From contig CAWECD010000013.1 of assembly GCA_963807575.1 (NCBI GenBank), positions 113,605 through 177,604 on the forward strand: a stretch of 64,000 nucleotides of DNA, in the 5' to 3' direction. Made by a program: the position numbers and the translations under genes. Of the stretch, positions 16,542 to 39,703 are shown piece after piece; the first letter of the stretch is position 1, and each line of letters opens with the position of its first letter. This DNA is from an uncultured Acidimicrobiaceae bacterium. GTDB lineage: Bacteria > Actinomycetota > Acidimicrobiia > Acidimicrobiales > Bog-793. The notes beneath the pieces were generated by a model, which did not search any database, was not told the DNA's origin, and was given only the letters and a program-made list of their open reading frames with translations.

Positions 16542-19052
16542 ATGTTCAAGCCATCCAGTGCACGGTCGCGAGACGACAAGGCGGACAGGCGCATCACGAT
16601 CCGGTTGGGGACGGCCCTGATCGTCGTTGCCGGCATGCTCCTCGGTCCAATCGCAATAACGGCGTCGGCCGCAGCCACGCCCCATGCCACCACACCGATC
16701 ATGGGCTCCTACGTCTCAGTGACGCCATTTCGCATCACCGACACCAGGCCGAACTCCGGCCAGCCGAACGCGGGCAAGCCCCTTGCCGCCAACTCCACGC
16801 TGAATGTGCAGGTCACGAAGGTGGGCACCGCGCCCATACCCGCCGGAATGGCGGCCGCGGTGCTCAACGTGACCGCGGTCGACCCGACCGCCTCGGGGTT
16901 CCTGACCGTCTTCCCCGAGGGGATCACGATGCCGGTGGTCTCCAACCTCAACTTCCCACCCGGCCTCACAGTGGCGAACCTCGTGACAGTGCCGCTGAGC
17001 TCTTCGGGCATGGTGTCGATCTACAACCACGCCGGCAGCACGAACGTCGTGGTCGACGTGGAGGGCTATTACACGAGCGCTCCTTTGGCCAACGGCAGCG
17101 GGCTGTACAACTCCCTCTCCCCCGTGCGTGTACTTGGCACCCTGGCCTCTGGTACCGAGATCGGGCCGAACACCAACATGCCCGTCACGGTGACAGGGAC
17201 GGCCACCGGAGTCCCCGCCACCGCCACCGCTGTCGTGGTCAACACGACCGCTGCCCACGGGACCAAGTCGAGCTTTCTCACCGTCTACCCGACAGGTGTG
17301 ACCATGCCGACCGCGTCGAACGTCGACTTCCTGGCTGACCACGTGGTCGGCAACCGCGTGACGGTCGGAGTCGGAACCGGGGGCCGGATCGAGATCTACA
17401 ACCACACCGGTACGGTGAACGTGGACGTCGACGTGGACGGCTACTACACCGGCAATGGCGGCACCGGCTCGGCCTTCGTGCCGATCACACCGGTCCGCAT
17501 CACAGACACTCGTGTGTCCAACAACGGCACGCCGATCACTGCGAACACGTCGGAGGATTTCAACCTCTCCACTTCTGCCAGCGGGATCCCCACGGCCGCC
17601 TTGGCCGTCGCCGGGAACTTCGCGGTGATTGCAGGCGACGCCCCTGGCTACCTCACCGTCTATCCGAAGTCCGACACGACCGTGCCAGTCGCGTCCGACG
17701 TGAACTGGGCCGCCAACCAGTCCCCGGCCGTCGCGAACTTCACGGTCGCGGACACGGCCGGTACCGGCAGCGTGGAGCTCTACAACAGCCACGGTGCGAC
17801 GATCAACGTCGTGATCGACGCCTTCGGGTACTTCGCGCGACAGCTCCCCACAAGTCTCACGGTCTCGGAGTCACCGACCAGCGTCACCTACGGCCACGAA
17901 ACGGCGTCGGTCTTCTACGTGACCGTCACGGCCCAATATGGCCAGGTGGTGCCCAACGGCGAGACGGTACCGGTACAGGTCGGCTCTGTCACCTGCACGG
18001 TGACCCTCAAGGGCGGCAAAGGCAATTGCACGATCGCCAACACCGCCCTGGCCCCCGGCTCGTACCCGGTGTCGGCCACCTATGGCGGTGACGCCAGCCT
18101 GAATGGCTCGAGCGGCTCGAGCGGCTCGAAGCTGACCGTGTACAACGAGGCCACGGGCACCTCCGTCTGGAAGTCACCGTCCAGCGTCACCTACGGCGAC
18201 GAATCGGCGTCGGTCTTCCACGTGACCGTCACGACCCACTATGGCCAGGCAGTGCCTTACGGCGAGACGGCGACGGTGGCCGTCGGCTCTACCACCTGCA
18301 AAGCGGTGCTCAGTAGCGGGAAGGGGACTTGCACGACCGCCAGCACCGCGCTCGCCGTCGGCTCCTACGACGTGTCGGCCACCTTTGGTGGTGACGCCAA
18401 CTTGATTGCCTCGAGCGGCTCGAGCGGCTCGAAGCTGACCGTGAACAAGGAAACCACGAGCACGTCCGTCTCGGAGTCACCGACCAGCGTCACCTACGGC
18501 GACGAATCGGCATCGGTCTTCTCCGCCAGCGTCACGACTCACTATGGCGAGGCCGTGCCCAACGGCAAGACCGTGACGGTGCTCGTCGGCTCTGTCAACT
18601 GCACAGCGGTGCTGACGAGTGGCAAGGGGACCTGCACCATCGCCGACACCGCGCTGGCCGTCGGCTTGTACCCGGTGTCGGCCACCTTTGGCGGTGGCGT
18701 CAACCTGATCGGCTCCGGCGGTACGAGCGGCTCCAAGCTGACCGTCAACAAGGACGCCACGGTCACCACGGTCTCGGAACTGCCGACCAGCGTCACCTAC
18801 GGCGACGAATCGGCTTCGGTCTTCTCCGCGGATGTCACGACCCACTATGGAGAGGCAGTGCCCGACAGCGAGACAGTGACGGTGCAGGTCGGCTCCACCA
18901 CCTGCACAGCAACGCTCAAGGGCGGAAAAGGGACTTGCACGATCGCCAACACCGCGCTGGCCGTCGGCTCCTACGACGTGTCGGCCACCTATGGCGGTGA
19001 CGCCAACCTGATCGACTCCAGCGGCACGAGCGGCTCGAAGCTGACCGTGTGA
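16542..19052 (+). CDS. Large secreted repeat protein, paralogue 1 (4 N-terminal ~105-aa repeats + 4 Ig-like repeats)
   Basis: 836 aa with signal peptide RRITIRLGTALIVVAGMLLGPIAITASAAA. It has four repeats of the pattern RITDTR...NVTAV...GFLTVFP...SNLNF...VANLVTV...IYNH.G..NVVVDVEGYYT. These are followed by four ~101-aa repeats (SPTSVTYGDESASVF.V.VTTHYG..VP.GETV.V.VGS..C...L..GKGTCT...TALAVGSY.VSATYGGD) resembling bacterial Ig-like group 3 domains. Confidence 0.85.
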   Translation: MFKPSSARSRDDKADRRITIRLGTALIVVAGMLLGPIAITASAAATPHATTPIMGSYVSVTPFRITDTRPNSGQPNAGKPLAANSTLNVQVTKVGTAPIPAGMAAAVLNVTAVDPTASGFLTVFPEGITMPVVSNLNFPPGLTVANLVTVPLSSSGMVSIYNHAGSTNVVVDVEGYYTSAPLANGSGLYNSLSPVRVLGTLASGTEIGPNTNMPVTVTGTATGVPATATAVVVNTTAAHGTKSSFLTVYPTGVTMPTASNVDFLADHVVGNRVTVGVGTGGRIEIYNHTGTVNVDVDVDGYYTGNGGTGSAFVPITPVRITDTRVSNNGTPITANTSEDFNLSTSASGIPTAALAVAGNFAVIAGDAPGYLTVYPKSDTTVPVASDVNWAANQSPAVANFTVADTAGTGSVELYNSHGATINVVIDAFGYFARQLPTSLTVSESPTSVTYGHETASVFYVTVTAQYGQVVPNGETVPVQVGSVTCTVTLKGGKGNCTIANTALAPGSYPVSATYGGDASLNGSSGSSGSKLTVYNEATGTSVWKSPSSVTYGDESASVFHVTVTTHYGQAVPYGETATVAVGSTTCKAVLSSGKGTCTTASTALAVGSYDVSATFGGDANLIASSGSSGSKLTVNKETTSTSVSESPTSVTYGDESASVFSASVTTHYGEAVPNGKTVTVLVGSVNCTAVLTSGKGTCTIADTALAVGLYPVSATFGGGVNLIGSGGTSGSKLTVNKDATVTTVSELPTSVTYGDESASVFSADVTTHYGEAVPDSETVTVQVGSTTCTATLKGGKGTCTIANTALAVGSYDVSATYGGDANLIDSSGTSGSKLTV
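17866..19049 (+). repeat. Four tandem ~300-303-bp coding repeats (Ig-like domains of paralogue 1)
   Basis: The string cc(g/a)(a/t)ccagcgtcacctacggc recurs near 17875, 18178, 18480 and 18783. The repeats are in frame within the CDS. Confidence 0.8.
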
Positions 19053-19983: not shown

Positions 19984-22566
19984 CTACCCGATGACGAACC
20001 ACGCAATCTGAACGGGGACGGTCACGGGCCCGGTCAGATAGATCGTGAAGGCGTCGGCTGTCGCGTCCGGCACGACGGCTGCGACCCCGATGCTGAAGGC
20101 GTCCCCGGTACCGGGGGGAACGTAGACCTGCGGAGTGGCAAAGATCAGGCTCGATGCGCTGAGAGAGACCCCGGCAACGGTCACCCCCGACTCGGGATTG
20201 GCAACGCTTCCCGCGACCAGAGCGCTCCCGCTTCGTGAGAAAGTGGCAATTCCCTGGACTTGGAGGGCCGGGCCGGAGGTGCTCTCAGCCAACACGCCGA
20301 CCCCGGTCCCACTCGAGCCCTGCACGCCGATGCCGGCGGCCGGGGAGCTGCCGGAGACGCCAATGCCGCCTTCTGCACTCGTGTTGACGCCTTCGACGCC
20401 GCTCTTGTTGGCCACCGAGGCTTGGCCGTACACCGCGGTGCCGTTCTGCGAGGTTCCCTGGACGCCGTAGCCACCGGCCGTGCTTGTGTCGACGCCTTCG
20501 ACGCCGCTCTTGCCGGCCGCCGTGGTCAGGCCGTAGGCACCGGTCCCGTTGGTCGAGCTCCCGTAGGTCCCGTATCCACCGTCCTTGCTCGTGTCGACGC
20601 CTTCGACTCCGCTCTGACCATCAGTCGCGGTGGTGCCGTAGACGCCGGTGCCGTTGGTCGAGCTCCCCTGGACGCCGTAGCCACCGCCCGGGCTCGTGTT
20701 GACGCCTTCGACGCCGCTCTTTCCGGCCGCGGAGGTCTGGCCGTAGACACCGGTACCTTCGTTAGAGGCTCCGTAGGCGCCGGTACCGTTGATCGAGCTC
20801 CCGTAGGTGCCGTAACCACCGGCTGAACTGTTGTCGACGCCTTGGACCCCACTCTTGCCGGCCGCCGAAGTCTGGCCGTGAGCGCCGGTGCCGTTCTCTG
20901 AGGTTCCCTGGACGCCGTAGCCACCGCCCGAGCTCGTGTCGACGCCTTTCACGCCGCTCTTGCCGGTCGCCAAGGTCTGGCCGTAGGCGCCAAAGCCGTT
21001 GGTCGAGTCCCCGAAGATGCCATAGCCGCCCAACTTGCTCGCGTCGACGCCTTCGACGGCGCTCTTGTTCGCCGCCAGGGTCTGGCCGTACACGGCGATG
21101 CCGTTCTCTGAACTTCCCTGGACGCCGTAGCCGCCCAACTTGCTCGTGTCGACGCCTTCGACGCCGCTCTTGCCGGACGCCGAGGTCTGGCCGTGAGTGC
21201 CGGTGCCGTTCTCCGAGGTCCCTTGTACGCCGTAGCCACCGCCTGGGCTCGTGTCCACGCCCTTGACACCACTCTTGCCGGTCGCCGCGGTCTGGCCGTG
21301 CGCGCCGGTGCCATTGGTCGAGCTCCCGAAGGTACCGTTGCCTCCTTCCTTGCTCGTGTCGACGCCTTCGACCCCGCTCTTGCCATTGGCCGTGGTGGTG
21401 CCGTAGACACCGGTACCGTTCTCCGAGACTCCCTGGACGCCGTAGCCGCCGTCGGGGCTCGAGTTGACGCCTCTGACGCCGCTCTTACCGGCCGCCGAGG
21501 TGCGGCCGTAGACACCGGTACCTCCGCCGGAGCCACCGTAGACGCCGGTACCTCCGCCGGAGGAACCGTAGACGCCGGTACCGTTCGTCGAGTCGCCGAA
21601 GGTGCCGTAGCCGCCCGTCTTGCTCGTGTCGACGCCTTTGACGCCGCTCTTGCCGTCTGTCAGGGTCTGGCCGTAGACGCCGGTGCCGTTCTCCGAGGTT
21701 CCCTGGACGCCGTAGCCGCCCTTCTTGCTCGCGTCGACGCCTGCGACACCGCTCTTGCCATCCGCCGAGGTCTCGCCGTAGGCACCGGTCCCGTTCTCCG
21801 AGGTTCCCTGGACGCCGTAGCCACCGAGCCTGCTCGTGTCGGAGCCTTCGACGCCGCTCTTGCCATTCCCCGAGGTTTCTCCGTAGGCACCCGTACCGTT
21901 GATCGAGCTCCCGTAGGTGCCGAAGCCGCCCGCCTTGCTCGCGTCGACGCCTTCGACGCCGTTTAGGCCGGCCGCCGAGGTCTCGCCGTAGGCACCGGTC
22001 CCGTTGGTCGAGTTCCCGTAGGTGCCGTAACCACCTCCTTTGCTCGTGTCGATGCCTGCGACGCCACTACGGTTTGCCGCCGAGGTCTCGCCCTGGACGC
22101 CGGTGCCGTTCTCCGAGGTTCCTTGCACGCCATAGCCACCGCTCGCGCTCTTGTCGACGCCTTCGACGCCGCTCTTGTCATCCGCCGAGGTCAGGCCGTA
22201 AGCGCCGATCCCGTGCGCCGAGAGCCCGGAGGTACCATGGCCGCCGCCCGAACTGGTGTCGACGCCTTCGACGCCGCTGCCGTTCGTCTCCGAGGTCATG
22301 CCCTCGAGGCCAGAGCCGCTGGTGGTCGTGACTACGGTTGTGGCGGTAGCCGAGTTCCTCGTGCCGAGAACGACGGCATCGTTCGAGGCCCCGCTCGAGG
22401 CTCCGCTAGGGTCCACGCCGGCGACGAGGCCGGCGGTGATCCCTACCCCGGTCGCCGCCGCCCCGAGCATGAGCGCGCGCCGACCGTAACGTGCCGCGCC
22501 ATTCGCAGATGCCTCACGGTCCTTTTCGGGTACAGCCCCAAGATCGTCAGGGGGTCGCTCGTTCAC
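19984..22566 (-). CDS. TAT-signal secreted Gly/Thr/Ser-rich tandem-repeat protein
   Basis: 860 aa. The N-terminus has a twin-arginine context (YGRRALMLGAAATGVGITAG). About 19 tandem copies of a 35-aa unit follow (GVEGVDTSK.GGYGVQGTSENGTGVYGQTSAAGKS), then a non-repetitive ~110-aa C-terminal domain. Confidence 0.8.
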   Translation of the reverse strand: MNERPPDDLGAVPEKDREASANGAARYGRRALMLGAAATGVGITAGLVAGVDPSGASSGASNDAVVLGTRNSATATTVVTTTSGSGLEGMTSETNGSGVEGVDTSSGGGHGTSGLSAHGIGAYGLTSADDKSGVEGVDKSASGGYGVQGTSENGTGVQGETSAANRSGVAGIDTSKGGGYGTYGNSTNGTGAYGETSAAGLNGVEGVDASKAGGFGTYGSSINGTGAYGETSGNGKSGVEGSDTSRLGGYGVQGTSENGTGAYGETSADGKSGVAGVDASKKGGYGVQGTSENGTGVYGQTLTDGKSGVKGVDTSKTGGYGTFGDSTNGTGVYGSSGGGTGVYGGSGGGTGVYGRTSAAGKSGVRGVNSSPDGGYGVQGVSENGTGVYGTTTANGKSGVEGVDTSKEGGNGTFGSSTNGTGAHGQTAATGKSGVKGVDTSPGGGYGVQGTSENGTGTHGQTSASGKSGVEGVDTSKLGGYGVQGSSENGIAVYGQTLAANKSAVEGVDASKLGGYGIFGDSTNGFGAYGQTLATGKSGVKGVDTSSGGGYGVQGTSENGTGAHGQTSAAGKSGVQGVDNSSAGGYGTYGSSINGTGAYGASNEGTGVYGQTSAAGKSGVEGVNTSPGGGYGVQGSSTNGTGVYGTTATDGQSGVEGVDTSKDGGYGTYGSSTNGTGAYGLTTAAGKSGVEGVDTSTAGGYGVQGTSQNGTAVYGQASVANKSGVEGVNTSAEGGIGVSGSSPAAGIGVQGSSGTGVGVLAESTSGPALQVQGIATFSRSGSALVAGSVANPESGVTVAGVSLSASSLIFATPQVYVPPGTGDAFSIGVAAVVPDATADAFTIYLTGPVTVPVQIAWFVIG
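20330..22280 (-). repeat. ~105-bp in-frame tandem coding repeat array
   Basis: The DNA is visibly periodic (gtcgacgccttcgacgccgctcttgcc... recurs about every 105 bp). It corresponds to the 35-aa protein repeat. Confidence 0.8.
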
Positions 22567-22638: not shown

Positions 22639-23280
22639 TCAGCCTGCAGCAGAAACGCCCGCGGCGGTGTCAGCGACGGACGTCGCAGTCACGGTCCCGT
22701 TCTTCGCCGTCGTGCCCTGCACGATCACGGTGTCGCCCGGCTGCATCGCGGATGCCGTGCTCTTGGCCTCGCGGGTATAGGTCGTGGACTTCCCGAGTGT
22801 GACCTTGACCAGGCCACCAGTCGCCGTCGTGACATAGAGGGTGTTGCCCTCGATGGTCGTCACGATGCCGGCGGCGGCACTCGTGGTCGCCACCCCAGGA
22901 AAGCTGCCCCGGGTGACGCCGGAGAAGCCCGACGAGCCGAACAGCCTTGCGAAGCTCGACGCGCCACTTGAAGCGCCTGTCGTCCCATGGGCGCGCTGCA
23001 AAGCAGCCCCGCCCCAGAGCCCACCGGCACCGATGAGAAGGGCGACCAGCACCGCCGTCGGGTACTTGAGGCGTAGGCCCGATCGAGGGCTCCGGATCGG
23101 CCATTCGTCGTCGGCAAGATCGCCTTCGTCGTCGCCGAGCTGTCCCGCTGACGGCGGTGGAACAGTTGGCTCCCAAGGGACCGTGACGACTTCGACCGGC
23201 TCGGTGACCACCGCGACCGGCTCGGTGGCGGCACCGCTGACCGGGGAAACCTGCTCGTCGGAAGTCGGGTCGTCTGGCAT
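22639..23280 (-). CDS. Membrane-anchored protein with DUF5666-like C-terminal domain
   Basis: I chose the ATG at 23280, 6 nt after GGGGAG. The track start is 23340. It has an acidic/Pro N-terminus, one TM helix (YPTAVLVALLIGAGGLWGGAAL) and a C-terminal GIVTTIEGNTLYVTTATGGLVKVTLGKSTTYT...GDTVIVQGT...GTVTATSV pattern. Confidence 0.55.
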   Translation of the reverse strand: MPDDPTSDEQVSPVSGAATEPVAVVTEPVEVVTVPWEPTVPPPSAGQLGDDEGDLADDEWPIRSPRSGLRLKYPTAVLVALLIGAGGLWGGAALQRAHGTTGASSGASSFARLFGSSGFSGVTRGSFPGVATTSAAAGIVTTIEGNTLYVTTATGGLVKVTLGKSTTYTREAKSTASAMQPGDTVIVQGTTAKNGTVTATSVADTAAGVSAAG

Positions 23281-23296
23281 GGATGCTCCCCTGTCC

Positions 23297-24511
23297 TCAC
23301 TCATAGCGGAGGGCGTCGATAGGTCGCAGTGACGCGGCACGGTTGGCGGGGTAGAAGCCGAAGAACACTCCCACGGCGATCGACACGCAAAAAGCGAGCA
23401 CGATCGAATATGGGGCTATGACGGGCTGAACGCCGGCTATCTTGAACCGGCTGCCCACCACGCCGATGACGACGCCGATGGTTCCCCCGATCAAGGAAAG
23501 TAAGACCGCTTCAAACAGGAACTGGGCGAGGATCGCCGACTTCGGAGCACCGATCGCCTTGCGGATCCCGATCTCGTGGGTGCGCTCGGTAACGGTCACG
23601 AGCATGATGTTCATGACCCCGATACCCCCGACAAGCAACGAGATGGCGGCTACGGCGGCGAGCAGCACGGTGAACGTGCTCGAGGTCGACTCCACCGTGG
23701 AGAGCAGGGTCGCCTGGTTCAGCACCTGGAACGGCAGGTCTGCAACTGTCGTGTCGTTCTGCGCCGCGAGGACGTTCTCGACTTCGGCCTCGGCGAGGTT
23801 CAGCGTCGAGGCGGACCTACCCTGAACGATGAGCTCGCTGAACGACTGGGAATAGCCCGTCAAGTGGTCCTCGACGGCGGTGTAGGGCGCAATGACCACG
23901 GCGTCCTGGTTCGTCAGCCCACTCGTGCCCTTCGATGCCAGCACGCCGACGATCTCGAAGTTGGTCGAGCCGATCATGATCGTCGCACCGAGAGGGTTCT
24001 CGCCGGTCGTGAACAGGTTGCTTGCGACATCAGCGCCGATGTCGACGACCTGGGCGTGCGAGGTGACGTCCTGGCTCGAGATCGCGCTACCGGCCTGGAC
24101 GGTGTAGTCCTCTGCAGTCAGGTAAGAGGGAGTCGACCCCTCAACGGTCGTGGTGTACGTGGCCGTTCCATAGGTAGCCGTCTCGCTGGTGGACACGACC
24201 GGGGAGACCGACTTCACATCCGGGGCGTTGTTCGGGTTCTCCAACGCGTTGACGTCCGCGATCGTCAACGACGCCACCTGGCTCTGGGTGCCGCTTGACC
24301 TTCCGAAGCGACCGGTGTTGAAGACCGTCAGGGTGTTCGTCCCGAGCTGGTTGATCCGGCTCTCGACGGCCTGAGACGATCCCGTCCCGACCGCCACCAG
24401 AATGATGACGGCCGAGACACCGATCAGCACGCCGAGGGTCGTGAGCGCCGAGCGGAGCTTGTTCGAGCTGATCCCGCCGATGGCGACCCGGAGGTTGTCG
24501 AAGATGTTCAA
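23297..24511 (-). CDS. MacB/FtsX-type ABC transporter permease
   Basis: 404 aa. The N-terminus NLRVAIGGISSNKLRSALTTLGVLIGVSAVI is followed by a large extracytoplasmic domain and a C-terminal FtsX 3-TM bundle (RTHEIGIRKAIGA motif). Confidence 0.9.
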   Translation of the reverse strand: MNIFDNLRVAIGGISSNKLRSALTTLGVLIGVSAVIILVAVGTGSSQAVESRINQLGTNTLTVFNTGRFGRSSGTQSQVASLTIADVNALENPNNAPDVKSVSPVVSTSETATYGTATYTTTVEGSTPSYLTAEDYTVQAGSAISSQDVTSHAQVVDIGADVASNLFTTGENPLGATIMIGSTNFEIVGVLASKGTSGLTNQDAVVIAPYTAVEDHLTGYSQSFSELIVQGRSASTLNLAEAEVENVLAAQNDTTVADLPFQVLNQATLLSTVESTSSTFTVLLAAVAAISLLVGGIGVMNIMLVTVTERTHEIGIRKAIGAPKSAILAQFLFEAVLLSLIGGTIGVVIGVVGSRFKIAGVQPVIAPYSIVLAFCVSIAVGVFFGFYPANRAASLRPIDALRYE

Positions 24512-25392
24512 CTCGCTCCTCCACTCCGGCTGCCTGACGCGGGCATGGCTTCGGCCGGCGCTTCGCGCTGGTCCATCCTCGTGTCCGAGGAGTGCACCGG
24601 GACAAGGCGACTGTCCTCGTAGATCTGGCCGTCGCGCAGCCGGACGATCCGACGCGCAAAAGAGGCGATGTCCTGTTCATGGGTGATGATCACGACTGTT
24701 CGGCCTTCGCGGTTCAGTCGACTGAAGATGGCCATGACCTCGTTGCTCGAGGCGGTGTCGAGGTTCCCGGTCGGCTCGTCGGCGAGGATGAGAGCAGGAG
24801 CCGTCACCAGGGCGCGGGCAATGGCGACGCGCTGCTGCTGACCACCGGACATCTCGCTCGGGAGATGATGGCTACGGTCCTCGAGGCCGACCTCGCGCAG
24901 CGCGGCCATGGCCCGCGCGTGCCGTTCCTTCGGCTTCACACCTCCGTAAGCCAGTGCGAGCTCCACGTTCGCCAGGGCGGTTGTGCGCGGGACCAGGTTG
25001 TAGTTCTGAAAAACGAAGCCGATCTTGCGGTTGCGGATGCGCGAGAGATCCGAGTCCTCGAGCTGGCGTACGTCCACGCCCTCCAACCAGTAGTAACCCC
25101 TCGTCGGCACGTCGAGGCACCCGATGATGTTCATCATCGTCGACTTCCCGGAGCCTGAGGCCCCCATGATGGCGACGAAATCGCCGGCCTCGACGCTCAG
25201 GGAGACCCGTCGCAGCGCATGAACTTCGACCTCCCCCGCCTTGTAGGTCTTCGTCACCGCCCGCAGCACGACGACTGGTCGTCTCCCTCCTGTGGGGAGC
25301 GGGCCCGCCGGGGCCGCAGTGACTCGAGATGGCAGGGCACGGAGGCCGTCAAGCGATTTGTCACGGTGGCCGAAGAACTGTCGAGGGCTCAT
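24508..25392 (-). CDS. ABC transporter ATP-binding protein (MacB/LolD-type)
   Basis: It has Walker A GASGSGKST, signature SGGQQQRVAIARAL and Walker B LILADEPTGNLD. Start and stop overlap the neighbouring genes. Confidence 0.9.
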   Translation of the reverse strand: MSPRQFFGHRDKSLDGLRALPSRVTAAPAGPLPTGGRRPVVVLRAVTKTYKAGEVEVHALRRVSLSVEAGDFVAIMGASGSGKSTMMNIIGCLDVPTRGYYWLEGVDVRQLEDSDLSRIRNRKIGFVFQNYNLVPRTTALANVELALAYGGVKPKERHARAMAALREVGLEDRSHHLPSEMSGGQQQRVAIARALVTAPALILADEPTGNLDTASSNEVMAIFSRLNREGRTVVIITHEQDIASFARRIVRLRDGQIYEDSRLVPVHSSDTRMDQREAPAEAMPASGSRSGGAS

Positions 25393-27593
25393 GGGACAGC
25401 GCCGCCGAAGCCGCCGCCGCCGGTGAAGCCGCCACCGCCGCCACCGAAGGTGCGTGTCGCTGTCGTCGTTCCTGTCGTACCTGCTGAGATCGTCGCGGTC
25501 GGCTCCACGAGCTTCTCGCCTGCCGTGACGCCGGTCAGGATCTGCGTCGTCGAGCTTCCCACCAGACCGACGGTCACACGCGTGGTGACCTGTTTTCCAT
25601 CCTTCAAGACAGTGACAGTCGAGGACAGGCCAGTGGTGGTCACCGCAGCGCTCGGGACTTCGAGCACGTTCGCCGCTGTGGCGACAACGACGCTCACGTC
25701 CGCGGTCATCCCATCCAAGACTGTCGCCGGCGGGTCCTTGAGCGTGATCGTCTCGTCATAGGTGACGACGTTGCTCGTGACCACCGACGTCGGCGAGATC
25801 GCCGTGACGACACCCGCGACCTCGGTGGAAGGAAGGGCTGCCAACGTCACGGTTGCCGGTTGACCGACGGCGATCTTCGTGGCGTCAGCTTCGGCGAAGC
25901 CGGCGACGACCTCGAGGTTCTTCAGGTCGTCGATTGTGACGAACCCGCTCGAAGACGACGAGCCCGACGACGATGAGGCGCTCGAACCGCTGGCGCCGCT
26001 GCCGGCCGCAGAAGCGGAGCTGCCTGCGCTCACCGTCTCATCGACCGTGCCATTGACCGCGGTCACCGTGCCGCTGATGGAGGCGGTGAGGACGGTCGCG
26101 TTGAGTGCGTCCTGGTCGGATGTGACGGTCTGCTGGTCCTGGGTGACGGCCTGCTCGTCCTGAACGATGGTGGCCGGGTTGACGGCCTGGCCTGCCACGG
26201 TGGCTGCCAAGCTGGCTTGTTGGAGCTGAATCGTCTGCTTCGCGTTCTGCACCGTCTGCTCGTCGGTGGCAATCGTGTTCCTGTCCGTCGTGCACGACCT
26301 GGTACCGGTGGTGAAGTACTCAGGCAAGCTGTAGGACGTTCCCTTGCTGTTGGATGCCACGAGGCGGAAGACATAGGAGCTTGCCGCGTGAAGACCGCGT
26401 ACCGCAACCGAGACTGTCACGCTCGTCGTACCGGCATCGAGGGTGGTCGGTGCGGTCTGCGACCCGTACAACGTGGTGGTGCCGTACTGGAAGAAGTAGG
26501 TCGTCTCAGCGCCGTTGGGGTCCACAGATCCCTCGAGACCGGCCGTCGTTGTCGTGACCGACGACGCAGACGAAGCAACGACCGAGGGAGCCGTCGCCTG
26601 GACGCTTCCCGAGTCAGAAATGCTGACGGCGTGGCTGGAGCTGGGGGGGGCGGTGGTGCCGGTGGAGCCGGTGATCGTGGTTGTCGTCGGCGCCTCGGTG
26701 GTGGTCGTGGTCGGTGCCGGCCTCGTTGTCGTGGTCGTGGTCGGCGCCTCGGTGGTGGTCGTGGTCGGTGCCGGCCTCGTTGTCGTGGTTGTGGTCGGCG
26801 CCTCGGTGGTGGTCGTGGAGCTGGCGCCGGTCGAGCCCGTGGTGCCGGTGGTGCTGCTACCGGTGGAGCTGCTACCGGTGGAGCTGCTACCTGTGCTGCT
26901 GGAACCAGTGCTGCTAGAGCCGCTGCCGGACGAGCTGCTGCCCGTGCCGGACGAACTGGCGCCCGACGAGCTGGCACCGGTGCCCGACGACGAAGAAGAG
27001 ACGGACGGGCAACCGAGCCTCTGGTCCGTAGCAAGCTGAGTCTTTGCGGTTGAAAGTGCCGACTGGTCCGAGCTGAGCTGTTCCTTGTCAGAGCTCAACT
27101 GGGCCTGCGCTGATGCGAGCTGTGACTTGTCCTGTGCGAGCTGCGACGCCGCGCCACCCTGCCGAGCCTGTTGCAAGGCTGTCTCGGCGCTTTGGAGATT
27201 CTCGACGGCGGTCTCGAGGTTTGCCCGCGCCGTAGTGGGGTCAAGCGTGCCGAGCACCTCTCCAGCCTTGACATGGTCCCCGACTGCGACGTCGACGGCG
27301 GTGACCGTTCCGCTGGTGCTGAAGTCCTCGTTGACGGCGGTGGCAGGGCTGATGTTGCCGGAGGCTGTGACACTTTCCTGGACGATGCCGCGCTGCACCG
27401 TGACGGTCCGGGCGATGCCGGCCGACGCGGAGCTGGTCTGGTAGATCGATCTCAGGCCGAATCCGGCGACCGCAGCCACCGCCAGAACGAGGACCCCGTA
27501 GAACACAACCTTGCGCCTTCGTCGCCCGGGAGGTACGCCAGGTGCCCCTTCCGCCGTCATGTCCGGACGCGACTTGCGAAAAATGGACCTCAC
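25389..27593 (-). CDS. HlyD/MacA/YknX-type membrane fusion (periplasmic adaptor) protein with large insertion
   Basis: 734 aa with an N-terminal TM anchor, a barrel-sandwich motif (GTVTAVDVAVGDHVKAGEVLGTLD), coiled-coil arms, a beta-barrel/MP domain and a Gly-rich tail. Residues ~195-434 are an extra Ser/Gly plus Pro/Thr linker and an FN3-like domain (see findings). Confidence 0.8.
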   Translation of the reverse strand: MRSIFRKSRPDMTAEGAPGVPPGRRRRKVVFYGVLVLAVAAVAGFGLRSIYQTSSASAGIARTVTVQRGIVQESVTASGNISPATAVNEDFSTSGTVTAVDVAVGDHVKAGEVLGTLDPTTARANLETAVENLQSAETALQQARQGGAASQLAQDKSQLASAQAQLSSDKEQLSSDQSALSTAKTQLATDQRLGCPSVSSSSSGTGASSSGASSSGTGSSSSGSGSSSTGSSSTGSSSTGSSSTGSSTTGTTGSTGASSTTTTEAPTTTTTTRPAPTTTTTEAPTTTTTTRPAPTTTTTEAPTTTTITGSTGTTAPPSSSHAVSISDSGSVQATAPSVVASSASSVTTTTAGLEGSVDPNGAETTYFFQYGTTTLYGSQTAPTTLDAGTTSVTVSVAVRGLHAASSYVFRLVASNSKGTSYSLPEYFTTGTRSCTTDRNTIATDEQTVQNAKQTIQLQQASLAATVAGQAVNPATIVQDEQAVTQDQQTVTSDQDALNATVLTASISGTVTAVNGTVDETVSAGSSASAAGSGASGSSASSSSGSSSSSGFVTIDDLKNLEVVAGFAEADATKIAVGQPATVTLAALPSTEVAGVVTAISPTSVVTSNVVTYDETITLKDPPATVLDGMTADVSVVVATAANVLEVPSAAVTTTGLSSTVTVLKDGKQVTTRVTVGLVGSSTTQILTGVTAGEKLVEPTATISAGTTGTTTATRTFGGGGGGFTGGGGFGGAVP
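26687..26818 (-). repeat. 54-bp tandem repeat, ~2.4 copies (encodes TTTTEAPTTTTTTRPAP linker units)
   Basis: Units at 26687-26740 and 26741-26794 are nearly identical, with a partial third copy to 26818. They are in frame inside the MFP gene. Confidence 0.85.
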
Positions 27594-27662: not shown

Positions 27663-28469
27663 TCAGCTTGTCGTCGATGTCGAGCTTGTTCCGGCCGGTG
27701 GGGTGAACTTCGGCACGAGACCGGCACAGGCGGCGAGCGCCTTCTGGACCGCAGTGCTCTTGGTTCCGACCGTGGTTGACGTGGTCGAACTGACCGCGCC
27801 GGAAGACCCGCTGGGCAAGGTCACGCCGTGGAGCTTCAGGCAGTTGCGGTAGGCGGCAAAGGCTGCGCTCGAAAGGCCGCCCGTCCCCGTGCCGTATCCC
27901 TTCGGCCGCAGGCTCGCACACGCGGCAAGCGCCTTTTGGACGGACGCGCTCTTCGTGTTGAGCGTCGTCGACGTGGTCGAGCTGGCAGTGCCGGAAGACG
28001 CAGCGGGCAACGTCACGCCGTGGAGCTTCAGGCAGTTGCGGTACGCGGCAGAGGCCGCGCCCGAGAAGCCGCCCGGCCTCGTGCCGAATCCCTTCGGGCG
28101 CAGGCTCGCGCACGCGGCGGACGCCTTTTGGAACGCGGAAGAGTTGAAGCTCCCACCCGACGGCAAGCTGCCGCCTGTGGGAAAGCTCCCACCCGTCCCG
28201 CCAAGTCCGAACCCACTGAACTTCACACCGTGCTTCTGCATGCAGGCGGCGTATGCGGTAGTCGACGCCTTCGAACTGTTGCTGGCACTTGTCGCGGCAC
28301 TCGTTGAAGAGGTCGTTGAGGAGCTCGCACTCGATGATCCGCCCCCGCACGCGCTGAGCGCGACTGAGCTGACGAGCGCTATGGCCAGCAAAGGAAACGA
28401 GACCCTCCGCACCGACCGGGACCGGGGCGCGGGTGATGACGGACTATTTCGGCGAACGGTTCCGCGCAT
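27663..28469 (-). CDS. Putative lipoprotein with three internal Cys-pair repeats
   Basis: The signal peptide has a lipobox-like LSAC (FPLLAIALVSSVALSACGG). AAGGGAG lies 8 nt before the ATG at 28469. The motif A.Y..C...HGV.L...(20-30 aa)...QKA..ACA.L.PK occurs three times, and the protein is Ser/Thr-rich. Confidence 0.6.
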   Translation of the reverse strand: MRGTVRRNSPSSPAPRSRSVRRVSFPLLAIALVSSVALSACGGGSSSASSSTTSSTSAATSASNSSKASTTAYAACMQKHGVKFSGFGLGGTGGSFPTGGSLPSGGSFNSSAFQKASAACASLRPKGFGTRPGGFSGAASAAYRNCLKLHGVTLPAASSGTASSTTSTTLNTKSASVQKALAACASLRPKGYGTGTGGLSSAAFAAYRNCLKLHGVTLPSGSSGAVSSTTSTTVGTKSTAVQKALAACAGLVPKFTPPAGTSSTSTTS

Positions 28470-28894: not shown

Positions 28895-31543
28895 CTACAG
28901 CGGGAAGAGCGTCTGGGTTGCCGCAAAGTCCGTCAGGCTGCCGGTGGCGTACACCGCGTTTGCAGTGGAGCTCGTCGCAGGAGCGGTGTAGATGATGCTC
29001 GCACTTGCCGTACTAGCCGCGAAGGCTCCAGTCAGGGTCAGCACGGCGCCCACCGTTGAGCAGCCGGTGGCCACACCACCGCTGCTCACACCCTGGTAGT
29101 AGTACACGAAGTCGGCGTCAGCACCTGTTACCGGGCAGGTCACGGCCTCGCTGTAGGTGATGGCTATTGACGGCGCGGTTACGACCGCTGACACCATGGC
29201 CGGCACCGGCGCTGCCCCTAGCGCAAATGTCTGCGTTGCCGGGAACTGCGGGAAGACGTTGGTCGCGTGCACCTCGGTCGCAACGGCGGGCGCCGCAGGA
29301 GAGGTGTACACGAGCGTGTCTGTAGCGCCTGGCAGGACCAGAGTCGCTGCTATGGCGCCCGTAGTCGTGGTCATGAACGACGAAAGCGTCAGCGTGTTGT
29401 TGGCGTGCGCCGTGCACACAGACGGGTAGGCGGGGCTACCACCATTGCTGTACACAAACTCCGACTGAAGCGCGGTACCGCAAACCATGGTGTCGCCCGT
29501 GGTGTAAGTAACAAGGATCGAGCCGCTGGCACCAGGTGTCACGACCGCCGCCGTAATGGCCGGCGTCGACCACGCGCTCAGTGTCTGCGATGCGGCATAG
29601 AGCGCCGGTACCGAGCCGGTCGCGGATACCGATGCCGTTGAGCTGTTCGTCGCAGGAGCGGTGTAGACGATGTTCGCACCAGTCCCTGGCGGTTCGACGC
29701 CTGCCGCATCGGTCAGGGTCAGCACGTCAGCCGCACACGCGGCGGTGACGGTCGGCGCCCCTTCAAATCCGGACGCCACACCTGTGTAGTCGTACGCGAA
29801 GGCGGCAGGAACCGTACCCGCTGGGTCGCAGGTCACGCCTTCGTTGTACGTGATCACGAGCGTTGTCGCGGTCGTGTACGCCGACACCATGGCCGGCAGC
29901 GCCGCTGCCGTCACCGCGAGCGTCTGCGTTGCCGCAAACTCCGTCGCGTTGCTCGTGGCATACGCCGCGTTCGAACTGCTGCTCGCCGCAGGAGCGGTGT
30001 ACACGATGCTGCCACCAGTACTCCCTGGCAGGGTGAAGCCGGCTCCAGTCAGGGTCAGCACGTCACCGGACGTTGTACAGCTGTTGGCAGTGATCGTGCC
30101 ACCGGACGCTGAACCAGTCCAGTAGTACGCGAAGTCGCTGGAAGCAGCTGTCGGGCAGGACACGCCCTCGTTGTAGGTGATCGCGATTGATGTGGCGGTC
30201 ACGGCCGCGGACACCATGATCGGCCCAGCGGTCGAAGCCGTGAAGTACCCGAAGACGTCGATCGCGAGGTTGATCGTCGCACCGTGGCTGTTGTAGACAT
30301 CCACGTTGCCAGTACCGGCCGTGTCAGCGATCGTGAAGTTCGGGACGATCTCGTTGGCAACCCAGTTGAGGTCAGAGGCGACAGGGTTCGTCGCGGCGGA
30401 CGTCGGGTAAACCGTGAGGTAGCCAGCGGAATTGCCAGCAACCACCGTGAAGTTGGCCGCCACGGCAGCCGCGTTGGCGGGGATCCCGCTGGCGGCAGTC
30501 GCTAGGTTGAAGCTCGCCGATGCGTTCGCCGCGATCGGCGTCCCGGTACCTACCAAGCTGGCCGTGCGGGTATCGGCCACGCGGACCGGTGTGATCGGCA
30601 CGAAGTATGAGCCGGTGCCACCGCTGCCGGTGTAGTAGCCGTCGACGTCAACGTCAACGTTCACCGTGCCGGTGTGGTTGTAGACCTCGATCTGGCCGCT
30701 GGTGCCGACTCCGACCGTCACGCGGTTCGCGACGGCCTGTCCGGCCACGAAGTTGACGTTCGACGCGGTCGGCACAGGGGTCACGCCGGCCGGGTAGACG
30801 GTGAGGTAGCTCGCCGCCGTCCCGTGAGCGGCAGTCACGTTGACCACAACGGCGGTCGCGGTCGCAGGAACGGTCTCAGTTGCAGACAGAGCCCCTGTCA
30901 CTGTGACGGGCACGCTCGTGTTCGCCGCGATCGGTGCGCCCAACTGGAGGTTGCCAAGAGCACGCACAGGCGACATCGAGTTGTACAGCCCGCTGCCATT
31001 GGTCGACGGAGTGCTCGTGTAATAGCCATCCACGTCAACCACGACGTTCGTGCTGCCGGCATGGTTGAAGATCGACACCATGCCTGTAGAACTGAGCGGC
31101 ACAGTCACGAGGTTCGCCACGACCACGCCAGGCGTGAAGTTGAGGTTGGAGACAGTCGGCATAGTGATACCCGCGGGGAACACGGTAAGGAACCCGGAGG
31201 CCGTCGGGCTAACCGCTGTCACGTTGAGCACAGCTGCCGACGCTCCGGCAGGTACGGTGCCTAACCCGGTGACCTGCACATTCAGCATGGCGCCGGCGGC
31301 AAGGGTCCCGCCCGCGTTCGGCTGCCCGGAGTTCGCCCGAGTATCGGTGATGCGGAAGGGTGTCACTGGGACATAGGTGCCCATGACGGGCGCCGTCGCG
31401 TGTGGCGTAGTCGTAGCCGAAGCGGCTAGCGCGAGCGGGCCGAGGAGCATACCGAGAGCGGCAACGAGCGCCGTCGCCAGCCGGATCGGCATACGCCTAC
31501 CCGCCTTCTCGCCCATCGAGCCGTCACGAGATGATCTGAACAT
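28895..31543 (-). CDS. Large secreted repeat protein, paralogue 2 (4 N-terminal repeats + 4 SbsA-type Ig-like domains)
   Basis: 882 aa from the ATG at 31543, with RBS GGAGAGAAG. The track start is 31609. It has a signal peptide (MPIRLATALVAALGMLLGPLALAASA) and the same N-terminal module as paralogue 1. Four ~105-aa domains follow (I.YNEGV.CP...F.Y...G......C.....LTLTG....P......IVYTAPA), each with two Cys. Confidence 0.85.
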   Translation of the reverse strand: MFRSSRDGSMGEKAGRRMPIRLATALVAALGMLLGPLALAASATTTPHATAPVMGTYVPVTPFRITDTRANSGQPNAGGTLAAGAMLNVQVTGLGTVPAGASAAVLNVTAVSPTASGFLTVFPAGITMPTVSNLNFTPGVVVANLVTVPLSSTGMVSIFNHAGSTNVVVDVDGYYTSTPSTNGSGLYNSMSPVRALGNLQLGAPIAANTSVPVTVTGALSATETVPATATAVVVNVTAAHGTAASYLTVYPAGVTPVPTASNVNFVAGQAVANRVTVGVGTSGQIEVYNHTGTVNVDVDVDGYYTGSGGTGSYFVPITPVRVADTRTASLVGTGTPIAANASASFNLATAASGIPANAAAVAANFTVVAGNSAGYLTVYPTSAATNPVASDLNWVANEIVPNFTIADTAGTGNVDVYNSHGATINLAIDVFGYFTASTAGPIMVSAAVTATSIAITYNEGVSCPTAASSDFAYYWTGSASGGTITANSCTTSGDVLTLTGAGFTLPGSTGGSIVYTAPAASSSSNAAYATSNATEFAATQTLAVTAAALPAMVSAYTTATTLVITYNEGVTCDPAGTVPAAFAYDYTGVASGFEGAPTVTAACAADVLTLTDAAGVEPPGTGANIVYTAPATNSSTASVSATGSVPALYAASQTLSAWSTPAITAAVVTPGASGSILVTYTTGDTMVCGTALQSEFVYSNGGSPAYPSVCTAHANNTLTLSSFMTTTTGAIAATLVLPGATDTLVYTSPAAPAVATEVHATNVFPQFPATQTFALGAAPVPAMVSAVVTAPSIAITYSEAVTCPVTGADADFVYYYQGVSSGGVATGCSTVGAVLTLTGAFAASTASASIIYTAPATSSTANAVYATGSLTDFAATQTLFPL

Positions 31544-32105
31544 TCGCTTCTCTCCATTTCCAGGATTACTGCGTCTGTCTGAGCTGTCGCATGGCCCCTG
31601 TCTGACCACAACCGACCGCGCAAGCGACCAGCATCTAACCTAACCGCTCAATACAAATGGCCGGCACCTCTGCGCTCAGCCAGGTGACACGCTCCCCCCG
31701 GTTCTCGCCTCGTTCTGCACTGTTACAAGGAAGGATGGAACTCTCACAAGCTCTGGTCGGAAGCTCATGACGCGGTGAGCCACAGGTCAACTTCAGGCCG
31801 CTGACCCCCATTGTCGACGTTGGTGAAAGCCTTCATGAGTCACACCCAGTCTGAGCAGTCGTCCACCTGAACTCCGAGCGACTCATCGAGGTTGCACTCG
31901 GCTCGTGCATCACCACGGTCTGAGCACCGAGGCGTTCCTCGCGACGGCCGGAGTCCTGCTCTCTTGGGCGCACGGTCTCCCGGTTCCAGTGGATAACTTG
32001 CTCGCCGCCTATGGCACCAACGTGGTCCCCGCATTGACAGAGGTCGGCACGACCCTCGAACTGCTCAGCCGACTGGACCCACCCCGTCGCTAGGACCGGA
32101 GCGTC

Positions 32106-32824: not shown

Positions 32825-35800
32825 TTAGTCACTCACCTTCAGGCTGAAGCTGGTCAGCACCACCCCGTCCGTCACTGACAGCGTGTCAGGCGTAGTGCCA
32901 GCAGCCGTAGTGGTGTAGGTGAACGCTGCGTAACCGGCCACAAGTGCCAACGTGCCCGCACCCGCAGACAAACTGGAGGTGCTCCCGGTCCCTTCAGCGA
33001 CCGCCACGTCCACGGTGGGCGTTCCGGCCAGCACAAAGTTGCCGTATTCATCGACGAGCTGAACAGCCAGGTAGAACGTGTGCAAGCCCTCAGTGGTTGG
33101 GTCCGTGAAGACCTGCGCCGTTGTCCACGGTCCACCAGCGGAGACGAAGGGCACACTTCCAACGGTGCCGGCGTCGAGGTACGTCCCGGCGGAAATGTCA
33201 GAGTTGATGATCTCGCCGTAGGCAGCAGTTGCTGCTGTCGGGAAGACCGTCTCCGTGTTCGACGCATAGCCATTGACCGTGAACACAAGGCCCTGAGACG
33301 CGGCGTCGAAAAGCGTGACCGACACAGGTGCCACCCCACCAGTGAACGTCACCGTTGTGGGTACGACAGCCGGGGTGCCGTTCGGTGACGCAAACTGCCC
33401 GGTCACCGTGACGGCGAACCTCGCGGCGAGCGTAGGCACGCCGCCATGGTTGGTGTCGATGATGCAGGTGCCGCACGGCGACGCAAACTGCCCGGTCACC
33501 GTGACGGCGAACGTCCCGGCGAGCGTCGGCGCGCCGTTCATGGTCAACGTCCCGGTGTCGGCAGCTCCAGCAACAGGAGCAAGGCCAACAGCAGCCGTCA
33601 AGTTCAACCCAGCCGCAAACTCCAACGGGCCGAGCGTCTGCGTTGCCGCAAAGACCGTCGTGCTACCGGTCGGGGTCACCGCGTTCGACGCCGTCGGCGC
33701 CGCAGGCTCGGTGTAGACGATGGTGGCACTTGGCTGTGCGCCAGTAAAGGCCCCGGCCAGGGTCAGAATCTCACCGGACGTTGTACAGCCGGTGGCCGTA
33801 CCGCCCAGAGAGGCACCCTGGTAGTCGTACACGAAGTCGGCGTCAGCACCCGTTGCCGGGCAGGTCACGGGCGCGTTGTAGATGATCGCGATTGATGTCG
33901 CGCTCACGGTCGCCGAAACCATCTCCGGAGCCGTCGCCGCGCCAATCACGAAGGTCTGCGCTGCCGCGAACTGCGGGTAGTTGATAGTTGCGGTCACCGC
34001 GTACACAGCACTGTTTGTCGCAGGAACGGTGTACACAATCGTGTCCGTAGCGAGCGGCAGGGACAGAGTCGCTGCCGTGGAACCCGTCGCCGAGGTCATG
34101 AAGCCACCCAGCGTCAGTATGTCTCCAGCCGCGCTGCACGTTGTCGGGTAGGCAGGGCTACCAACGTTGCTGTACACGAGGTCCGCCTGAACGCTGCCCT
34201 GGGTAGTCGGGCAGGCCACGGGCTCGCCGTAGGTGACAGCGATCGTCCCCGCCGCCGCGCTGACGGTCGCCGCCGTAATGGTCGGCGTCGTCCAAACGGT
34301 GAGCGTCTGACTTATCGCGTACACGTAACCGGTCCCGGTCGCGTACACCGATGTTCCAGGCGCAGGGTCAGGAGTACCGCTCACCGAAGGCTCGGTGTAG
34401 ACGATGCTGGCAGGAAGCGACGGTGGATCGGCAGCGGCCAGACTCAGAGTCAGCGTGTCAGTGCCAAGCCCACCCGGCGCGCACCCTGTGACCGCGTCGG
34501 TCGCTGCGCCAGTCCAGTAGTAGGTGAAAGTGCCAAAAGCCGGGCAGATCACGTCCTCGTTGTAGGTGACCACGACCGTTGGCCCCGCTGTGCTGTACAC
34601 CGCCGACACCATGGTCGGCACTGCTGCTGCCGCCAACGCGAGTGTCTGCGTTGGCGAGAACAACGATGTGTTGCTGGTGGCGTAGACCGAAATCAACGTG
34701 CTGTCCGCGACCGCGGGGGTCCGGCCAGCACCTGCGGTGTAGGTGAGGGTGCCACCAGTGCTGCCTGGCAGGATGAAGGTTCCGGACAGGACCAGCTCAT
34801 CAGCGTTCGTTGCGGACGTTATGCAACCGGTGACCGCGCCACCCGACGCTGAACCAGTCCAGTCGTAGGCAAAGGCGCCATCAGCACCAACTGCCGGGCA
34901 GGACGCGCCCTGGTTGTAGGTGATCGTGATCGAGTTGGCTGCCACAACCGCCGACACCATGATCGGCCCACTGCTGAAGGGCATGAAGTACCCGAAGACG
35001 TCGACCACGAGGTTGATCGTCCCGTAGCTGTTGTAGACCTCGACGGCTCCCGTGCCGTTCGTGTCCGCGATGGTGAAGTTCGGGACAATGTCGCCGGCAA
35101 CCCAGTTCTCGCTAGAAGCGACGGGGTGCGTCGTGGTGGCTGCCGGGTAGACCGACAGGTAGCCGGAAGTCGCGCCTGCAACCACCGTGAAGTTGGCCGC
35201 AACCGAAGTGGCAGTCGCGGGGATACCGCTGGCGGTGGTGGCGAGGGTGAAGCTCTCCGAGGCGTTCGCCGCGAGCGGCGTCCCGGTGCCTACAAGGCTG
35301 GCCGTACGGGTGTCGGCCACGCGGACCGGCGTGATCGGCACGTAGTACGAACCGGTGCCACCGGCGGCGGTGTAGTAGCCGTCCACGTCGACATCGACGT
35401 CAACGGTTCCGGCGTGGTTGTAGACCTCGATCACTCCGCCGGTGCCGACTGCGACCGTCACGCGGTTGCAAACAACCGCACCAGCCGCGAAGTTGACGTT
35501 CGAGAACGTCGGCGCCGTCGTTAGCGCCGGTGCCGGGTAGACGCTGAGGAAGCTCGACGCATTCCCGTGGGCCGCAGTCACGTTGACCACGACAGCGATC
35601 GCGCTGGCGGGAACGCCGGTAACAGTCCCCGTCACTGTGACGGGCACGCTGGTGTTCGCCGCAACCGGTGCGCCGACGGCGAGGGTGCCGAGAGCACGCA
35701 CGGGGCTAATCGAGTTGTACAGGCCGTAGCCGGTGGTCGAAGGAGTGCTCGTGTAGTAGCCCTCCACGTCAACCACGACGTCGACGTCAGTGCCCGAGCT

Positions 35801-39695: not shown

Positions 39696-39703
39696 CGCGT
39701 TCG

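Follow-up and report, generated by a model that had tools for sequence, protein, structure and literature searches.

A 64,000-nucleotide stretch of DNA from an uncultured Acidimicrobiaceae bacterium (assembly GCA_963807575.1, contig CAWECD010000013.1, positions 113,605 to 177,604 of the forward strand), referred to here as the window, encodes a membrane fusion protein (MFP) of the periplasmic-adaptor family whose α-helical hairpin carries at its tip a 238-residue loop bracketed by two cysteines and containing a long disordered linker and a domain of the FN3 fold. The open reading frame (ORF) at 25389-27593 of the minus strand is unbroken, and its 734-residue product contains exactly two cysteines, C195 and C434, whose codons form the two ends of the interval 26292-27011 flagged at first reading. 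Between them lie, in order, a Ser/Gly tract, a Pro/Thr tract, a Ser-rich spacer, and the FN3-like domain, so that linker makes up about 140 residues of the tip loop of this protein, alongside a single FN3. The earlier note on this DNA had proposed a MacA/YknX-type MFP of 734 residues with an insert of about 240 residues, bracketed by two cysteines, at the tip of its hairpin, and the translation, the profile and structure matches, and the structural model described below bear out each part of that description. The adaptor family itself is already known; what is new relative to the known adaptors is the placement of an FN3 domain and linker in a cysteine-bracketed loop at the hairpin tip. Pump specialists would find such an adaptor surprising, and the function put forward here is a proposal throughout.

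The protein belongs to the membrane fusion protein/periplasmic adaptor family, a placement on which profile, fold, and operon context all agree. The efflux adaptor subunit model TIGR01730 (RND_mfp, NCBIfam) matches in two stretches, one on each side of the insert (109.1 bits, cut-off 94.9), and this model and those for MacA cover residues 64-191 and 551-696. A Pfam scan identifies lipoyl-like and barrel-sandwich domains, while the top sequence matches in the PDB are MacA chains covering residues 26-187 and 548-697. When the full-length AlphaFold2 model is submitted to Foldseek, the top matches are again MacA (9qgy_G, E=6e-19, and 5nik_D), and AcrA, MexA, EmrA, and the Gram-positive adaptor Spr0693 (5xu0_B) are matched as well, with probability 1.0. 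Genes for a MacB-type ATPase and a MacB-type permease adjoin the MFP gene. The MacA equivalog model NF008606 is not reached (71.2 bits against a cut-off of 342), and the protein is therefore MacA-like and not a MacA orthologue.

The insertion point is defined by the AlphaFold2 model, a monomer built from 82 homologues, because the coiled-coil arms align with those of MacA by composition only and a phmmer alignment to MacA cannot fix it. The model begins with a membrane helix and lipoyl strands, continues through helix 1 (residues 120-192), a disordered region (residues 197-331, with a predicted local distance difference test score, pLDDT, below 50), a β-sandwich (residues 337-428), and helix 2 (residues 433-498), and ends with the second lipoyl half, a disordered loop (residues 527-544), a β-barrel, and a membrane-proximal domain. 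This order of elements fits the MFP fold, in which an α-hairpin is spliced into a split lipoyl domain and followed by the β-barrel and membrane-proximal domains, and pLDDT exceeds 90 in the folded parts, including the β-sandwich. Helix 1 ends three residues before C195, and the first turn of helix 2 contains C434. Because the model puts the disordered region and the FN3 domain between the two helices, the insertion is at the hairpin tip. A simple N- or C-terminal extension is ruled out by the MFP homology on both sides of the insert as well as by its placement in the hairpin of the model.

A second Ser/Gly loop, at the junction of the lipoyl and β-barrel domains, sits by alignment where MacA has its gating-ring loop. 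The MacA alignment resumes at MacA residue 211, which corresponds to residue 548 of the window protein, and the innermost residue of the MacA gating ring is Gln209 according to the MacA comparison in PMC5768738. In a hexamer, six such loops would face the lumen. A comparable but longer Ser/Gly tract is present in ordinary adaptors of Actinoplanes and Amycolatopsis and in one of the homologues (P0041).

Much of the linker is repetitive in the DNA. Tandem Repeats Finder reports a 54-bp repeat at 26675-26818 (2.7 copies, 96% matches), which encodes the Pro/Thr tract, and shorter repeats of 15 and 21 bp in the Ser/Gly part (26845-26901 and 26924-26965). Near-identical DNA (90-96% of sampled words) occurs in at least eight independent soil and freshwater-sediment metagenome runs from two studies, and both flanks of the insert are reproduced without insertions or deletions in contigs of those runs. 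Short-read unitigs break solely within the 54-bp repeat, as expected of a repeat, and one metagenome contig steps back 78 bases inside it, which is what a longer variant would produce. These independent runs, together with the more than 100 homologues that have the same architecture, rule out misassembly, gene fusion, and frameshift. The reading frame, whose continuity the earlier note had singled out for checking, is thus continuous, and the note was also correct in deriving the Pro/Thr tract from a 54-bp tandem repeat. Its expectation that the tract would vary in length holds between lineages: in the proteins most closely related to that of the window, the insert measures 127-283 residues, and the Pro/Thr tract ranges from absent to about 130 residues.

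Although its own copy scores below the Pfam threshold, the domain at the end of the insert has an FN3 fold as modelled. In isolation it matches Pfam fn3 (PF00041) with E=4e-4 and 20.9 bits, under the 25-bit gathering threshold; it is recognizable by the motif GSVDPNGAETTYFFQYGTT...YVFRLVASN within residues ~337-432. Modelled alone with AlphaFold2 from 24 family copies, it forms seven to eight strands with a pLDDT of 95.7 and a predicted template-modelling score (pTM) of 0.86. Foldseek ranks the sensor domain of RsgI4, an anti-sigma factor, first for this model (template-modelling score, TM, ~0.7; E=2e-5), and further matches include many classical FN3 domains, among them those of NCAM, DSCAM, and titin (TM 0.5-0.75).

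The pattern is as widespread as the earlier note had supposed. An exhaustive search with residues 337-520 against 1.84 billion representative proteins yielded 21,540 matches at E<=1e-3, the top ones being giant proteins with up to 38 copies of the same domain type; eight of the nine giant proteins scanned far exceed the Pfam fn3 threshold, with 72-153 bits as whole-protein sums over their copies. The FN3 module is of the kind from which long stalks are built, and the arrays of the same FN3 type in giant proteins fit a stalk or spacer module. These repeat proteins swamp the exhaustive search, which cannot be used to count adaptors with a tip FN3, and a homologue search through a word index, with only the FN3 domain as query, returned two proteins and was uninformative. 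The module is found in none of the other ORFs of the window.

Relatives of the adaptor were collected by homologue search and by a scan of species-representative genomes with the full-length alignment as query, and 175 non-identical full-length proteins were tabulated. The architecture occurs mainly in metagenome-assembled genomes from peat, bog, palsa, and soil. Most of its carriers are labelled Acidimicrobiaceae or Acidimicrobiales and a few Gaiellales, Gaiellaceae, or Solirubrobacteraceae, and it extends over at least two classes of Actinomycetota and more than 100 genomes, with the ORFs open. The closest relative, from an Acidimicrobiaceae genome (locus L001), is 92% identical over the best segment. 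A survey of Actinomycetota for tip insertions, which the earlier note had suggested, has in this way produced more than 100 relatives with zero to eight FN3 copies. The tip loop contains one FN3 in 96 proteins, two in 10, three in 9, four in 5, five in 2, and six and eight in one protein each, while a further 21 have a loop made of linker alone, 7-120 residues long. The smallest members carry C-x7-C tips, such as ...ALPTC-SGKTTTG-CTTS... in P0086. One member (L054) has 120 residues of pure (GSTGGS)n between its cysteines, another (L056) has lost the loop and both cysteines, and the largest seen (locus L046, CAWCME010000003.1, 4569-9245) holds eight FN3 in a tip loop of 989 residues, with neighbouring copies up to 84% identical.

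The loops follow a regular grammar, of which the cysteines, here called C1 and C2 in order of sequence, are the frame. The hairpin region has two cysteines in 135 of the 175 proteins, none in 37, three in 3, and never one, and the pair corresponding to C195 and C434 is invariant in an alignment of 35 homologues with one FN3. On a rough tree of the conserved core, built by the unweighted pair group method with arithmetic mean, the state of the cysteine pair switches about eight times, both residues always together, and the number of FN3 copies has shifted at least 18 times. In a cysteine-free clade with three to four FN3 (P0014, P0020-P0022, P0024, P0029, and P0056), Phe stands in place of C1, and Arg, Lys, or Gln in place of C2. 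Speculatively, Phe with Arg or Lys might take the place of a disulfide there as a cation-π pair.

The order of the parts within the frame is equally regular. The spacing from the last FN3 to C2 is constant (four residues from the end of the hidden Markov model envelope) in 105 of the 114 tabulated proteins with two cysteines and FN3. The FN3 beside C2 is an orthologous type of its own: 27 of 28 last domains have as best match another last or only domain, and all 63 of 63 internal domains best match a non-last domain. These tip-proximal domains share 37-50% identity across distant members, while neighbouring internal copies reach 90% identity, which indicates recent tandem duplication. On the other side of the array, the minimum linker from C1 to the first FN3 is 14, 65, 68, 84, 122, 157, and 199 residues for one, two, three, four, five, six, and eight copies, respectively; linker length correlates with copy number (Spearman 0.52, p=4e-9), the higher copy numbers being represented by one to four sequences each. 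Such scaling would be needed if the array were extended and fixed at its two ends.

The adaptor gene is the second of a five-gene cassette encoding, in order, a lipoprotein, the MFP, the MacB-type ATPase, the MacB-type permease, and a protein with a DUF5666 match, whose components are listed in the table with the features of the MFP gene. A comparison of about 80 related loci shows that the ATPase gene is kept downstream of the MFP gene in nearly all of them, that a homologue of the lipoprotein lies immediately upstream in most, and that a homologue of the DUF5666 protein lies 3' of the permease in almost every one. The lipoprotein and DUF5666 genes stay with the core in nearly all of these loci, including those whose adaptors have no FN3. 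The lipoprotein is probably part of the adaptor system; each of its repeats contains two cysteines in the pattern AY..C...HGV ... A..AC..L.PKG, and it has no match in Pfam or the PDB. The DUF5666 protein may be a fourth or fifth pump component; a PDB sequence search with it gave nothing useful, and a literature search on DUF5666 gave incidental mentions only. Several metagenome-assembled genomes have the five-gene cassette in two paralogous copies, both encoding an adaptor with one FN3 (L047/L048, L073/L076, and L068/L070), which suggests diversification within the genome.

Features of the MFP gene and its cassette (positions in the window; residue numbers refer to the MFP)
Feature	Position	Strand	Basis
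Predicted lipoprotein, 268 residues, L-S-A-C lipobox, three two-Cys repeats of ~64 residues	27663-28469	-	192-bp tandem repeat at 27724-28132
MFP gene (membrane fusion protein, periplasmic-adaptor family), with tip insertion	25389-27593	-	TIGR01730; Foldseek match to MacA
N-terminal membrane anchor helix, residues 29-50	27444-27509	-	AlphaFold2 helix; hydrophobic segment VVFYGVLVLAVAAVAGFGL
Outgoing hairpin helix, residues 120-192, short break at 145-148	27018-27236	-	AlphaFold2 helices 120-144 and 149-192, pLDDT >90
Cys195, first bracket of tip loop, conserved ...L-G-C-P motif	27009-27011	-	Invariant in alignment of 35 homologues
Ser/Gly-rich disordered linker, residues 196-258	26820-27008	-	AlphaFold2 pLDDT <50; partly 15-bp and 21-bp tandem repeats
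Pro/Thr tract, (TTTTTEAPTTTTTTRPAP) x 2.7, residues ~259-305	26675-26819	-	Encoded by 54-bp tandem repeat
Ser-rich spacer ahead of FN3, residues ~306-336	26586-26674	-	AlphaFold2 disorder to residue 331
FN3-fold domain, tip-proximal 'anchor' type, residues 337-432	26298-26585	-	AlphaFold2 domain model; Foldseek; sub-threshold Pfam fn3
Cys434, second bracket, conserved T-T-x-x-S-C-x-x-D motif	26292-26294	-	Invariant in alignment of 35 homologues; constant spacing after last FN3 strand
Returning hairpin helix, residues 433-498, short break at 469-472	26100-26297	-	AlphaFold2 helices 433-468 and 473-498, pLDDT >90
Second low-complexity Ser/Gly loop, lipoyl/β-barrel junction, residues 524-547	25953-26024	-	AlphaFold2 disorder, residues 527-544
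β-barrel and membrane-proximal domains, residues 548-700	25494-25952	-	MacA, TIGR01730, and HlyD_D23 matches
MacB-type ATP-binding cassette (ABC) ATPase gene	24508-25392	-	ABC_tran E=4e-33; MacB model NF007826 over residues 40-266 of the ATPase; 4-base overlap with MFP stop
MacB-type permease gene (MacB_PCD and FtsX)	23297-24511	-	MacB_PCD E=1e-38, FtsX E=9e-19; conserved in related loci
233-residue protein, hydrophobic stretch at its residues ~95-115, C-terminal DUF5666 match	22639-23340	-	DUF5666 E=6e-5, 23.7 bits, below 27-bit cut-off

Beyond the cassette, the window contains several large proteins with internal repeats. Downstream, an 860-residue protein (19984-22566, minus strand) combines an N-terminus of twin-arginine-like type with some 40 Gly-rich repeats, each ~20 residues long (G.GV.G......GG.G..G.S.NGTG.YG.T); it has no Pfam match, and only the four closest relatives (L001-L004) have it downstream of their cassettes. 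Upstream, two predicted secreted proteins of 904 and 1196 residues (28895-31609 and 32825-36415, both on the minus strand) have internal repeats and no Pfam family, and the first of them is kept upstream only in the closest relatives. An 836-residue Big_3_5 protein is encoded at 16542-19052, and GT2-methyltransferase genes occupy 36779-42055. The large secreted repeat proteins, the Big_3_5 protein, and the GT2-methyltransferase genes suggest an envelope-related neighbourhood, and these wider neighbours, both secreted repeat proteins and glycosyltransferase-methyltransferase genes, are common only to the closest relatives.

The interpretation that we favour, and that we hold to be evenly balanced between right and wrong, is that the gene product is the adaptor of a MacAB-like ABC exporter in a monoderm and that its hexamer bears six anchored, wall-directed masts of linker and FN3. 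The host, an uncultured Acidimicrobiaceae-type actinobacterium, is presumed to lack an outer membrane, and no TolC-like gene is present among the window ORFs scanned. MacA, YknX, and Spr0693 are hexameric tubes on MacB-type transporters, and by likeness to such relatives with solved structures the window protein would form a hexameric tube above its transporter. Its hairpin arms, about 70 residues each, would measure roughly 10 nm, and six cysteine-closed loops would sit at the mouth of the tube in place of the tight turn that docks to TolC in diderms. In the course of evolution, this loop has been loaded across the family with a disordered Ser/Gly/Thr/Pro linker and zero to eight FN3. The cysteine pair most likely forms a disulfide joining the two arms at the base of the loop, as its sequence pattern suggests, and actinobacteria are known to oxidise exported cysteines; a ring of interchain cysteines in the hexamer is an alternative that fits the same data.

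The geometry of the FN3 domain would account for the grammar of the loop. The termini of an FN3 lie at opposite poles of the domain, and because C2 follows almost directly after its last strand, the proximal FN3 would stand on the returning helix, with extra copies stacked outward from it. The linker would then have to run from C1 to the distal end of the array, which would explain why every array has a linker on its N-terminal side and why the linker's minimum length scales with the number of copies. As spacers or anchors of adjustable length, the masts would keep the duct exit positioned within or across the wall, a substitute for the outer-membrane partner. By analogy with YknXYZ and Spr0693-0695, the exporter is likely to clear the membrane surface of peptides or other amphiphiles.

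Several points weigh against this interpretation. The AlphaFold2 model is monomeric; that the protein forms a hexamer and that its FN3 projects outward are inferences of ours. FN3 domains serve many roles, and contact of the FN3 in the window protein with the wall or with a ligand is likewise something that we infer. Loss of both cysteines from the clade with three to four FN3 means that the staple is not essential. Moreover, the relatives are not independent of one another, the tree is crude, and sequences with high copy numbers are few, so the both-or-none and scaling statistics make the independent events look more numerous than they are. In favour of the interpretation, contigs in metatranscriptomes of wetland and peat (90-97% identity) span the cassette, including linker and FN3, and suggest that relatives express it; their RNA comes from those relatives, and contaminating DNA is possible in the libraries.

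Two other explanations give the tip insert a function of a different kind. The FN3 domain could serve to bind one particular partner, whether a wall polymer, the lipoprotein or DUF5666 protein of the cassette, or an exported substrate, and the whole would then be a delivery or assembly machine and not a pump for drug or peptide efflux. The lipoprotein and DUF5666 genes conserved on either side of the MFP-ATPase-permease core would suit this role, as would the distinct conserved type of the tip-proximal FN3, its best structural match to the sensor domain of RsgI4, and the presence in several genomes of two paralogous cassettes, as diversified specificity predicts. We consider it unlikely, however, given that the conserved FN3 positions make up a family-wide core motif common to generic repeat proteins, on which no MFP-specific surface patch was identified, and that members without FN3 retain the cassette, so that the domain is not required for cassette function. 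Those linker-only members bear differently on the second explanation, in which the six linker-FN3 modules, perhaps with the Ser/Gly loops of the lipoyl domain, cover or fill the mouth of the tube as a gate or filter and so govern passage in and out. A loop such as the 120-residue (GSTGGS)n polymer raises the possibility that disordered polymer is the primary feature, the insert lies exactly at the channel mouth in the AlphaFold2 model, and the second disordered loop coincides in position with the gating ring of MacA. Up to eight FN3 with a linker that scales to match suit an extended rod better than a plug, though, and the same FN3 type forms long arrays in the giant proteins, for which reasons a gate strikes us as a little less likely still.

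It could also be that the insert is functionally neutral and that a tolerant, disulfide-closed loop simply gathers low-complexity sequence and mobile FN3 domains through slippage and duplication. The wide variation in length and copy number, the 96%-identity tandem repeats in the DNA, and the complete loss of the loop in some lineages are all in keeping with this. On the other hand, the architecture has persisted with open frames over the whole taxonomic range given above, and the constancy of the FN3-to-Cys junction, together with the separate orthologous lineage of the tip-proximal FN3 and the identity that it retains between distant members, points to purifying selection. Neutrality is, in our judgement, quite improbable, and the wall-directed mast remains the reading that we carry into the comparison with known systems.

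That bacteria without an outer membrane retain long-hairpin adaptors is a recognised puzzle (PMC4446572), and the literature searched discusses the adaptors of Gram-positive bacteria as a presence without explanation. Diderm adaptors mesh with TolC through their hairpin tips (PMC4446572). No report of a folded domain or a cysteine-closed loop at the tip of an adaptor hairpin was found in the literature searched, which includes field reviews and the structural study of Spr0693. The system closest to that of the window in both sequence and structure is E. coli MacA of MacAB-TolC (PDB 5NIK, 9QGY, 3FPP), which has the same order of domains and is likewise partnered by a MacB-type ATPase and permease. 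The differences are concentrated in the loops. Where the MacA tip is a tight turn that meshes with TolC, the window protein has its 238-residue, cysteine-bracketed loop of linker and FN3, and where MacA has a gating-ring loop, the window protein has a Ser/Gly tract of about 25 residues. In addition, the ATPase and the permease are encoded by separate genes in the window, unlike in the MacA system.

Spr0693 of S. pneumoniae (PDB 5XU0) and YknX of Bacillus are closer in cell type, being MacA-like adaptors of MacB-type pumps in organisms that have no outer membrane. The Spr0693 hexameric tube has been proposed to deliver substrate to the peptidoglycan layer, and the model of the pump extends about 154 Å above the membrane, a height that its authors compare with the inner wall space below the peptidoglycan (PMC5768738). 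Its hairpin tip is a flexible loop of 22 residues, Pro142-Gly163, that could not be traced (PMC5768738). Unlike the window protein, these adaptors have at most such a short loop at the tip, with neither a cysteine bracket nor a globular domain, and a shorter traced helical barrel (56 Å) as against arms of about 70 residues. The fourth component of their systems is YknW, in place of which the window cassette encodes the lipoprotein and the DUF5666 protein.

Within the MacB superfamily, FtsEX is an ABC system that acts beyond the membrane through a long coiled-coil partner, EnvC or PcsB, with a globular domain at its distal end. By analogy, the masts might be active elements that transmit force and not passive spacers: ATP-driven mechanotransmission by MacB might travel along the ~10-nm hairpin and reach an FN3 mast that is stapled at its base and sits in the wall, so that the pump would act on partners in the wall or at the surface, or open a path, with the lipoprotein and DUF5666 protein as partners or cargo. 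We give this idea very little weight. FtsEX-PcsB is mentioned in the Spr0693 study (PMC5768738), and the parallel has a clear limit in that EnvC and PcsB are separate, non-MFP proteins with hydrolase or activator domains, whereas the window MFP has no catalytic domain.

A parallel to the tip array itself is found in surface proteins. Periscope proteins (PMC8201768) and the stalks of fibrillar adhesins (PMC9210967) are built of tandem Ig- or FN3-like modules whose copy number differs among strains or species and sets the reach of the projection from the cell, and in these, as in the tip-FN3 family, neighbouring repeats are highly similar, a sign of recent duplication. Surface stalks are linear and anchored at one end, whereas the tip-FN3 array belongs to a closed loop with both of its ends on the adaptor and a return linker that scales with it, and its variation in copy number is known here between lineages. 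The family is common in Acidimicrobiia of peat, soil, and sediment, a group with few cultured members, and may inform on their envelope. Set beside the adaptors that dock to TolC, it shows what has become of the hairpin tip in evolution without that partner, namely a loop closed by cysteines in which linkers are accommodated together with differing numbers of FN3 domains. Its series of zero to eight FN3, with the cysteine pair present or absent, constitutes a natural set of variants bearing on whether the tip positions the exit of a pump in the wall.

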